NCBI RefSeq assembly: GCF_054482525.1
Contig: NZ_CM137006.1
Length of the DNA: 64,000 nucleotides
Strand: one strand, 5' to 3'
Part shown: positions 6,001 to 9,000 of the stretch, piece after piece
How positions within the stretch are numbered: position 1 is the first letter of the stretch
Layout: each line of letters opens with the position of its first letter
Program-made: the position numbers

Positions 6001-9000
6001 AATTTTCTGTCTGTGAACTTATTCAGGATGTAGCTCAAAAATTTGAGCTCAGCATAGAAACCCGTCGATTGCAACTAAGAATTATGATGTCACATTCCCT
6101 GCCTCTTATCAGGGCAGATATTTCAATGATAGAGCGTGTGATAACAAATTTACTGGATAATGCTGTACGCCACACACCTCCGGAAGGCTCGATTAGGCTG
6201 AAAGTCTGGCAGGAAGATAATCGGTTGCACGTCGAAGTGGCTGACAGCGGCCCCGGACTAACTGAAGATATGCGAACTCATCTTTTCCGGCGGGCATCAG
6301 TGTTATGTCATGAACCGTCAGAAGAGCCCCGGGGAGGACTGGGATTGCTGATTGTACGCAGGATGCTGGTACTACACGGTGGTGATATCAGGTTGACTGA
6401 TTCAACGACTGGAGCCTGCTTTCGTTTTTTTCTTCCATTATAACATCAGGCGGCATATTTTGGGGTGGTTATGTGTATCTGCCTTTGTAAAGGGATACAA
6501 GTTCTGTAGTGGAGCACAAAATCAGGACACCGGAATAACCTGTTTCCACTTTTCTTCATGTAAGCAAGGCGGTAAACCATCGTTGTTCGTGTGAGGTCGA
6601 TAAACGTTGTAATAACCATTAATCCACTGGTTTATATCGCGTACCGCATGGCTAAAATCACCATAACCACCTTTCGGAAGCCATTCATTTTTAAGGCTGC
6701 GAGAGACTCTTTCTATCGGCGAATTATCCAGGCAATTCCCTCTGCGACTCATACTTTGCATTACCCCATAACGCCAGAGTAACTTTCTGTATTTATTGCT
6801 TTTATACTGAACACCTTGATCTGAATGAAACAGCAGGCGGCCATCACGCGGTCGTGTTTCCAGTGCATTACGCAAAGCCCTACACACCAACTCAGCATCA
6901 GCGGTTAATGAGAGGGCTGAACCGATAATCCGCCGTGAATATAAATCAACAACGAGCGCGAGCTAACACCATTTGTCCTGCAGGCGAATAAAACTGATGT
7001 CGCCGCACCAGACGCGATCTGGTGCGGCGGGGTTAAATTGCCGGTTCAGTAAATTTGGCAATGGCGGACTTTTGTCTTCGTTTACCCGGTTGTGATGTTT
7101 AACCAGCTGTCGACTTGTCAGCCCTCATTCCCGCATCAGTCATCATGCCAGCCACCGGCCTGCATCAACGCCACTCTGGCGCAACATCTGACTGATTGCC
7201 CGGCTACCCGGCTGCGCCACGACTGAGAGCATGGAAAGCCCTCACCCGGCTTCGTAATTCAATTCTTTGCACATTAACAGGACGCTTCACCGGTATAAAC
7301 GTGGTGGTCATGAACATGTTGCTATCCCTAACTACCTTGAACGGCAGTTCGCCGTGACCGAGCCAAATCAGGTGTGGTGCGGTGATGTGACCTATATCTG
7401 GACGGGTAAGCGCTGGGCGTACCTCGCCGTTGTTCTCGACCTGTTCGCAAGAAAACCAGTGGGCTGGGCCATGTCGTTCTCGCCGGACAGCAGGCTCACC
7501 ATGAAAGCGCTGGAAATGGCATGGGAAACCCGTGGTAAGCCCGGCGGGGTGATGTTCCACTGCGATAGTAATAATGCCGGTATCAGTTTTTATCATCACT
7601 CTGTTTGCTGTTTAACCAGACTGGTGTGATTACTGATGCAGTGAAGACCTTCCCGCATCCTGACTCACACAGCGATCGACCCTTTGTGTCCTGCCCTGGA
7701 CCTGTCGGTTGCCGGAAGCGCCTTCATGCGAGGCGTCTCCTCACCGATGCGCGTGACTCAAGAAGGGCCTGACGGTTTGTCTCGTTACTGTCCTGTCCGG
7801 GTTATCTGTCTGGAGATTCAACTCTGTTTCCTCACAGGAGCTCTGTTATGGCAGGTAAAGTTACGGAAACCGCTGTTGTGGGTGGCGTGGATACACATAA
7901 AGATCTGCACGTTGCCGCTGTCGTAGATCAGAACAATAAAGTTCTGGGGACCCAGTTTTTCTCCACAACACGGCAAGGTTACCGGCAGATGCTGGCATGG
8001 ATGACTTCGTTTGGGGCATTAAAGCGAATTGGTGTTGAGTGTACTGGCACCTATGGATCAGGTCTGCTTCGCTATTTACAGAATGCCGGGTTAGACGTTC
8101 TTGAGGTGACTGCGCCAGATCGGATGGAGCGACGCAAACGGGGTAAAAGTGACACGATTGATGCTGAATGTGCCGCTCACGCCGCATTCTCCGGAATAAG
8201 AACCGTCACACCCAAAACGCGCAATGGCATGATTGAGTCTCTGCGGGTATTAAAAACTTGCCGAAAAACAGCAATATCAGCCCGCAGAGTCGCTCTCCAG
8301 ATTATCCATTCCAATATTATCTCTGCCCCGGATGAATTACGTGAACAGCTCAGAAATATGACGCGCATGCAGCTCATCAGGACTCTGGGATCCTGGCGGC
8401 CTGATGCCAGTGAATACCGCAATGTTACCAACGTTTATCGTATTTCATTAAAGTCCCTTGCCCGACGCTATCTCGAGTTACATGACGAAATCGCTGATTT
8501 GGATGTCATGATTGCGGCAATTGTCGATGAGCTGGCGCCTGAACTGATTAAACGTAATGCTATTGGATACGAAAGCGCTTCGCAGTTGCTGATCACGGCA
8601 GGAGACAATCCCCAACGATTAAGATCAGAATCAGGTTTTGCGGCACTGTGTGGTGTCAGCCCTGTTCCCGTATCTTCAGGAAAAACGAATCGTTATCGAC
8701 TTAACCGGGGTGGAGATCGTGCTGCAAATAGTGCACTTCACATCATTGCCATCGGACGTTTGCGAACTGACGATAAAACGAAGGAATATGTCGCCAGACG
8801 AGTAGCGGAAGGGCATACAAAAATGGAAGCAATACGCTGCCTGAAGCGCTATATCTCACGCGAAGTTTATACATTACTGCGTAATCAAAACAGGCAGATC
8901 AACAGCATCCCGATAACGGCTTGACTCTTAGAAGGGCGTCCAGGGCAGTCATTATACGAGCAGGCAGTTCCGGCAGTTATTGTGGCGATACCAGATCAGG

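Follow-up and report, generated by a model that had tools for sequence, protein, structure and literature searches.

The perfect palindrome at 7001-7029 of the 64,000-nucleotide stretch of contig NZ_CM137006.1 (RefSeq assembly GCF_054482525.1; this whole stretch is called the window in the following) lies in the orfB coding sequence of a decayed ISKpn37 element, which is joined head to head with a truncated IS911-type element, and the palindrome constitutes no special site. We assign a probability of roughly 90% to this reading. Within this E. coli pathogenicity island the region is a mobile-element scar of an ordinary kind, composed entirely of known elements. The initial annotation had described it as a scar of IS decay carrying two opposed IS3-family transposase remnants, which is borne out by the anatomy of the region. 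It had also placed the palindrome between the two remnants, and this has to be given up, as there is no inter-element spacer and the DNA is collinear with ISKpn37 from 6505 to 7291. The IS names used here are taken from PGAP product names and from two papers.

The ISKpn37 remnant (IS3 family) is encoded on the minus strand at 6505-7291 and corresponds to nucleotides 467-1253 of the 1253-nucleotide element, i.e., to most of orfB and the right terminal repeat. It aligns collinearly with the intact copy on plasmid pKPC_CAV1099 with 98.0% identity over 787 contiguous nucleotides, and three E. coli chromosomal copies align without a break from position 6505, or from a shared kinase flank, to position 7291 (96.6-98.3% identity). 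In complete E. coli genomes searched by megablast, hundreds of copies are present in other contexts with the homology beginning at 6505, and the copies on plasmids are 1253 bp long, intact, ~97% identical and annotated as ‘IS3-like element ISKpn37 family transposase’. The right terminal inverted repeat was located at 6505-6544 (minus strand; plus-strand sequence TGTAGTGGAGCACAAAATCAGGACACC...), and in a full-length copy (L003:2516-3777) the two 40-nt terminal repeats are 78% complementary. Moreover, strains CH436 and 2022E04-002 carry a full-length but degenerate copy of 1262 bp, with imperfect 40-nt terminal repeats (TGTAGTGG…/…CCACTACA), at the same site and adjoining the same sensor kinase; the window copy is therefore a truncated derivative.

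The orfB pseudogene of the remnant extends over 6522-7291 on the minus strand, as shown by three-frame translation and base-by-base comparison with intact ISKpn37. The comparison over element nucleotides 467-1253 revealed 15 substitutions, four of which are nonsense changes. The conceptual translation of 6525-7208 matches the Pfam domains rve (6e-24) and rve_3 (1.6e-9), and the minus-strand frame through the interval contains the sequence HSDQGVQY. PGAP describes this minus-strand stretch as ‘IS3 family transposase; frameshifted; internal stop; missing N-terminus’. Of the minus-strand OrfB fragment initially delimited at 6522-6960, the frame starting from 6522 was recovered, but its end at 6960 was not, since the frame continues past the TAG codon at 6963-6965. 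With the reference element the window copy shares the right inverted repeat, the orfB frame and the position beside the histidine kinase of the hlyCABD module. Unlike intact ISKpn37, it carries four in-frame stop codons (7143-7145, 7140-7142, 7125-7127 and the TAG at 6963-6965) and a 1-nt insertion at 7209, and it lacks nucleotides 1-466 comprising IRL, orfA, the frameshift region and the beginning of orfB. Regarding the features by which IS3-family elements are recognized, the right one of the imperfect TG...CA terminal repeats is present in the window and the left one is deleted. The two frames orfA and orfB, connected by a programmed -1 frameshift, are both found in the intact pKPC_CAV1099 copy, and orfA and the overlap are deleted in the window. 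Judged by its sequence, the window copy is a remnant and a non-functional member of the family.

The palindrome itself reads CGCCGCACCAGA-cgcga-TCTGGTGCGGCG and consists of perfect 12-bp arms separated by a 5-nt spacer, exactly at the position at which it was originally reported; complementarity stops at the outer edges of the arms. The sense (minus) strand of 7001-7029 forms 13 pairs including one U-G pair. Three-frame translation showed that the minus-strand frame crosses the palindrome, which encodes the residues (P)AAPDRVWCG(D) of OrfB. The arm codons GCC GCA CCA (Ala-Ala-Pro) are the exact reverse complement of TGG TGC GGC (Trp-Cys-Gly), and the palindrome exists because the Ala-Ala-Pro codons reverse-complement the conserved Trp-Cys-Gly codons preceding the first catalytic aspartate. 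The GAC codon of the aspartate of the W-C-G-D-I motif, at 6999-7001 on the minus strand, is in the reading frame and overlaps the left edge of the palindrome; we take it to be the first aspartate of the DDE triad, in line with the established IS3-family motifs. The rve domain spans the residues encoded by the palindrome including this aspartate. In reference ISKpn37 a quasi-palindrome is present at the same codons (PAAPNRVWCGD), and the window copy differs from it by an exchange of Asn to Asp (AAC to GAT).

With respect to the element, the palindrome is situated ~500 bp (496 bp) inside from the terminus at 6505 and ~260 bp (258 bp) away from the junction with the IS911-type element. The same palindrome was found in full-length ISKpn37 copies on Klebsiella, Citrobacter and Enterobacter plasmids in unrelated contexts; ISKpn37 is annotated on Raoultella plasmids as well. 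The palindrome belongs, together with the minus-strand fragment, to one uninterrupted stretch of a single known element, an outcome that the initial annotation had named beforehand as speaking against its reading. We infer that the palindrome is a by-product of the coding sequence and that it plays no role as a terminus or as a recombination site.

The palindrome is real and non-random. Six perfect palindromes with arms of ≥12 bp and spacers of ≤10 nt are present in the window, compared to an expectation of 0.075 per window derived from 40 dinucleotide-preserving shuffles. The five others, with 12-13-bp arms and 2-4-nt spacers, are located at 34540-34565, 40624-40649, 43896-43925, 56933-56960 and 60264-60289; these are probably terminator-type hairpins, the terminator type being assumed, or operator-like sites.

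Several alternatives have to be considered for the origin and role of this sequence. According to one of them the palindrome is intergenic, being the end of an IS, a REP-like element or a target of site-specific recombination by which the module boundary was made. Its location approximately midway between the two longest open reading frames visible without read-through would speak for this. Its position in contiguous ISKpn37 coding sequence, far from the terminus and from the junction, and its presence in the plasmid-borne elements argue against this. Furthermore, independent copies remain homologous across 7001-7029 and lose their homology only at 6505, so that the earlier suggestion of an IS terminus does not hold. 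The suggestions of a REP-like element or a recombination site fail likewise, as the sequence is part of a gene. The arm is not a dispersed repeat: it has no second occurrence in the window even if one mismatch is allowed, and in being intragenic, within the orfB frame, and without dispersed copies in the window the palindrome differs from REP- or BIME-like elements. Similar sequences retrieved from outside the window are all located within ISKpn37-type elements. An intergenic site of any of these kinds is accordingly the least credible of the alternatives and is refuted by the collinearity with ISKpn37.

The palindrome might, alternatively, be a functional cis element of ISKpn37, acting either as an mRNA hairpin that affects ribosome pausing or stability or as a regulatory hairpin or cruciform in the DNA. 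Its non-random occurrence, its presence in intact reference ISKpn37 as well as in every close copy (all examined copies of at least 90% identity have kept it) and its high stability would be in agreement with this. The intact ISKpn37 stem, consisting of 10 perfect pairs, a mismatch and two further pairs, has an RNA folding energy of -21 kcal/mol. The window stem, which is extended to 12 perfect pairs by the Asn-to-Asp change, reaches -26 kcal/mol, and the stem of 13 perfect pairs in some other ISKpn37 copies reaches -27 kcal/mol. Moreover, an intact Serratia relative of 87% identity carries three synonymous changes, all of which preserve the pairing via G-U. However, its stem is weaker (-15 kcal/mol), and that of an intact Klebsiella relative of 80% identity, in which AAP is replaced by VEP, is weaker still (-10 kcal/mol). 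In more distant relatives, i.e., a Serratia marcescens relative of 66% amino acid identity and IS222, the stem is mostly gone, and the two synonymous differences in the IS911 group are both pair-breaking. The distant relatives (Serratia marcescens, Y. pestis, IS222) were retrieved via tblastn, and the Y. pestis locus was excluded as it contained no recognizable match to the motif. A search for related loci in viral contigs yielded only three near-identical copies and added zero diversity.

Covariation in the alignment of 11 sequences did not exceed that of shuffled alignments (score of 0.145 vs. 0.154), and the single change affecting both sides of the stem was equalled by 229 of 500 shuffles. 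An Rfam scan of 6300-9500 at E ≤ 1 returned only a meaningless snoRNA match (E = 0.91), and a promoter and terminator scan of 6400-7900 revealed nothing exceeding the expectation from shuffles. The 12-bp stem was not called as an intrinsic terminator, the U-rich run beginning 7 nt past the stem; the terminator scan flagged only another stem of six pairs (7011-6994), at a rate not above that of shuffles. The lack of covariation, the weakening of the stem in relatives and the lack of an Rfam or terminator match support the view that the palindrome arose as a side effect of coding. Apart from this, the conservation of the WCGD motif fixes one arm, and Pro (CCA) opposite Trp (TGG) provides three pairs for free. 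Structures that stimulate frameshifting in IS3-family elements are known from locations far from that of the palindrome, which lies ~100 codons into orfB, and the gene is dead in the window. A functional hairpin, such as one with a role in the active element of a particular lineage, is thus improbable, albeit the least improbable of the alternatives considered here, and we retain the reading of the palindrome as plain orfB coding sequence.

The fusion between ISKpn37 and the IS911-type element was mapped to 7287-7291. Side-by-side comparison with two ISKpn37 copies, with IS911 of strain D2 and with the fec-linked element of BL21 showed that the ISKpn37 homology ends at 7291 and that the IS911-type homology starts at 7287, leaving 5 bp, TCACC, common to both. 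The elements meet head to head and both are broken internally, ISKpn37 at nucleotide 467 of 1253 and the IS911-type element ~593 bp from its right end; an inverted repeat of either element is not present at the junction. The absence of a terminal repeat at the fusion together with the shared TCACC argues for illegitimate recombination rather than transposase action as the mechanism, although the 5-bp overlap could be a coincidence. A single illegitimate, microhomology-associated recombination or deletion event would have fused ISKpn37 to the IS911-type element, at the cost of orfA and the left end of each and of anything in between.

Both partners belong to the IS3 family, members of which are known to cause adjacent deletions, so that the junction might also have arisen by transposase action of IS911 or ISKpn37, e.g., through a one-ended event or an adjacent deletion, or by an inversion between IS copies. 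Such deletions, however, end exactly at an element terminus, and here both elements are broken internally. Due to the head-to-head orientation the fusion cannot be explained by homologous recombination between the two orfB genes, as recombination between inverted copies results in a chimera of the same orientation. An inversion was moreover rejected since the missing halves of ISKpn37 and IS911 are absent from the rest of the window, which does not contain a reciprocal junction either. Transposase action or inversion is therefore quite improbable, somewhat more so than a functional hairpin, and illegitimate recombination is the preferred mechanism. Of the 5426 complete E. coli genomes, 44 contain the junction, and the 1.2-kb query is covered to at least 80% in 42 genomes; this distribution is consistent with one ancestral event that was inherited with the island. 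No genome was found with the arrangement preceding the deletion (full ISKpn37, intervening DNA, full IS911, fec), and in CH436 the DNA past the full-length ISKpn37 is a different module and not fec.

Two chimeric open reading frames run over the junction, at 7204-7599 on the minus strand (131 aa) and at 7267-7629 on the plus strand (120 aa), the ends of which are antisense or foreign IS sequence. The plus-strand IS911-like remnant had originally been placed at ~7267; an orfB fragment of this type is indeed present, but its homology begins only at 7287. It seemed to begin at ~7267 because of a TTG ‘start’ at 7267, which is located in antisense ISKpn37 sequence.

The first part of the IS911-type (IS911/ISEc52-like) orfB occupies 7287-7566 on the plus strand and lacks IRL, orfA and the beginning of orfB. 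It is 99.3% identical to IS911 (L005) and 97.9% identical to the fec-linked element of BL21, and it matches the Pfam rve domain (1.3e-18). The 3′ part of orfB and the right end follow at 8941-9253 on the plus strand, and then the conserved flank toward fecE; right end and fecE flank are contiguous in 2638 of the 5426 genomes. Over 8941-9800, which covers the right end and the fecE flank, the window and BL21 align without interruption at 98.8% identity. The last bases of the right end (9237-9257) read …GACCACAACAG, compared to …GACCACTTCA in the IS911 reference of D2. Due to this difference at the right end and the contiguous BL21 match, the fec-linked element is regarded as an ISEc52-like variant; its 3′ part is 93% identical to IS911. 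The IS911/ISEc52-type element flanking fecIRABCDE in BL21 thus resembles that of the window in its identity (97.9-99.3%), its right end and its fecE flank, whereas the truncating partner differs, being ISKpn37 in the window (fusion at 7287), IS600 in BL21 and IS30 in strain D2.

In the window the IS911-type element is furthermore split by ISEc21, whereas BL21 and the IS911 references are contiguous at this position. The ISEc21 copy is complete (IS110 family, 1374 bp; 7567-8940, plus strand), and it is annotated by PGAP as an ISEc21 family transposase. Its transposase gene at 7848-8924 is intact, is preceded by a non-coding region as in the IS110 family, encodes 358 aa and matches the two Pfam domains DEDD_Tnp_IS110 (PF01548) and Transposase_20 (PF02371). 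The element is inserted at 7566/7567 in the codon of the second DDE aspartate of the IS911-type orfB (FHCD|QGSHY) without target duplication. ISEc21 is a seekRNA-guided IS110-family element with an experimentally defined target in IS3-family transposase genes (Siddiquee et al., 2024; PMC11187229). Target site, length and the 358-aa transposase of the window copy agree with the published element, and it appears to be another natural example of this seekRNA-guided targeting. The examples of host elements given there are ISCfr6, ISEc92 and ISEc93 (PMC11187229), whereas the host in the window is of the IS911 type; otherwise there is nothing notable about the copy. E2348/69 likewise carries ISEc21 at this site (approximately L007:2779-4150), its host being a diverged IS911-like element of only ~85-88% identity. 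This insertion and that of the window both fit the published specificity of ISEc21 for IS3-family transposase genes.

The structure consisting of ISKpn37, the histidine kinase and hlyCABD was described for GI-pheU of E. coli (PMC8386418). The hly module is usually bordered by ISKpn37 adjoining the histidine kinase, and the fec module by the IS911-type element, with IS1F at the opposite end of the latter module; BL21 carries the same IS911-type element on the fecE side. On the far side of fec, at ~17980-20010 (L015:23185-25210), an IS1F with an internal stop and a frameshifted IS3-family element are located beside a dGTPase-family gene. With the IS1F/IS3-family edge on one side and the IS911-type edge on the other, the fec cassette is therefore IS-bracketed on both sides. 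The boundary between the hly/two-component-system segment and the fec segment is at 7287-7291: the region does separate the two modules, as initially proposed, but the breakpoint lies ~260 bp to the right of the palindrome to which the boundary had been attached. Beyond the full-length ISKpn37 of CH436 (L014, 1395000-1443000) an IS66 remnant and a defence-like trio of cytosine methyltransferase, ATP-binding and receiver-domain genes were observed, followed by cdiBAI, dsdCXA and a cutCD microcompartment locus, which take the position of fec. This arrangement shows the modularity of the island. The IS scar is already explained by known elements, and the ISKpn37-kinase-hly structure was already known.

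Finally, differences between the copies allow for a further reading of the palindrome’s history. Quasi-palindromes are reportedly hotspots of template-switch mutation, as described by the Ripley model and by reporter work on lacZ and thyA in E. coli. Intact ISKpn37 contains a 13-pair stem with one A-C mismatch, and in several decayed copies, including that of the window (and also L002), this mismatch is removed by an A-to-G change, which makes the 13-bp stem perfect. In addition, on the Salmonella plasmid p08-4425.1 the 3-nt loop (homologous to 7013-7017) is exactly inverted from CGC to GCG, replacing Arg by Ala, and by its sequence this would be explained better by one intra-hairpin event than by three adjacent transversions. 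Stem-perfecting change and exact loop inversion resemble what is expected for hotspots of the Ripley model. Unlike the reporter work, however, the ISKpn37 data are a sequence pattern in few natural copies, in which the direction of change is unpolarised. It is tentatively suggested, at odds clearly below even, that the orfB quasi-palindrome might be a natural hotspot of hairpin-templated mutation. If true, the copies of ISKpn37 would constitute a ready natural record of quasi-palindrome mutagenesis altering residues beside the catalytic aspartate.

As a summary, the value of the analysis lies mainly in annotation: three IS elements were named (ISKpn37, the IS911-type element and ISEc21), the boundary between hly and fec was placed in an island of the uropathogenic E. 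coli type, and a spurious candidate for a recombination site was removed. Moreover, it illustrates that a strong perfect palindrome can come purely from complementary codon choice in a conserved transposase motif.
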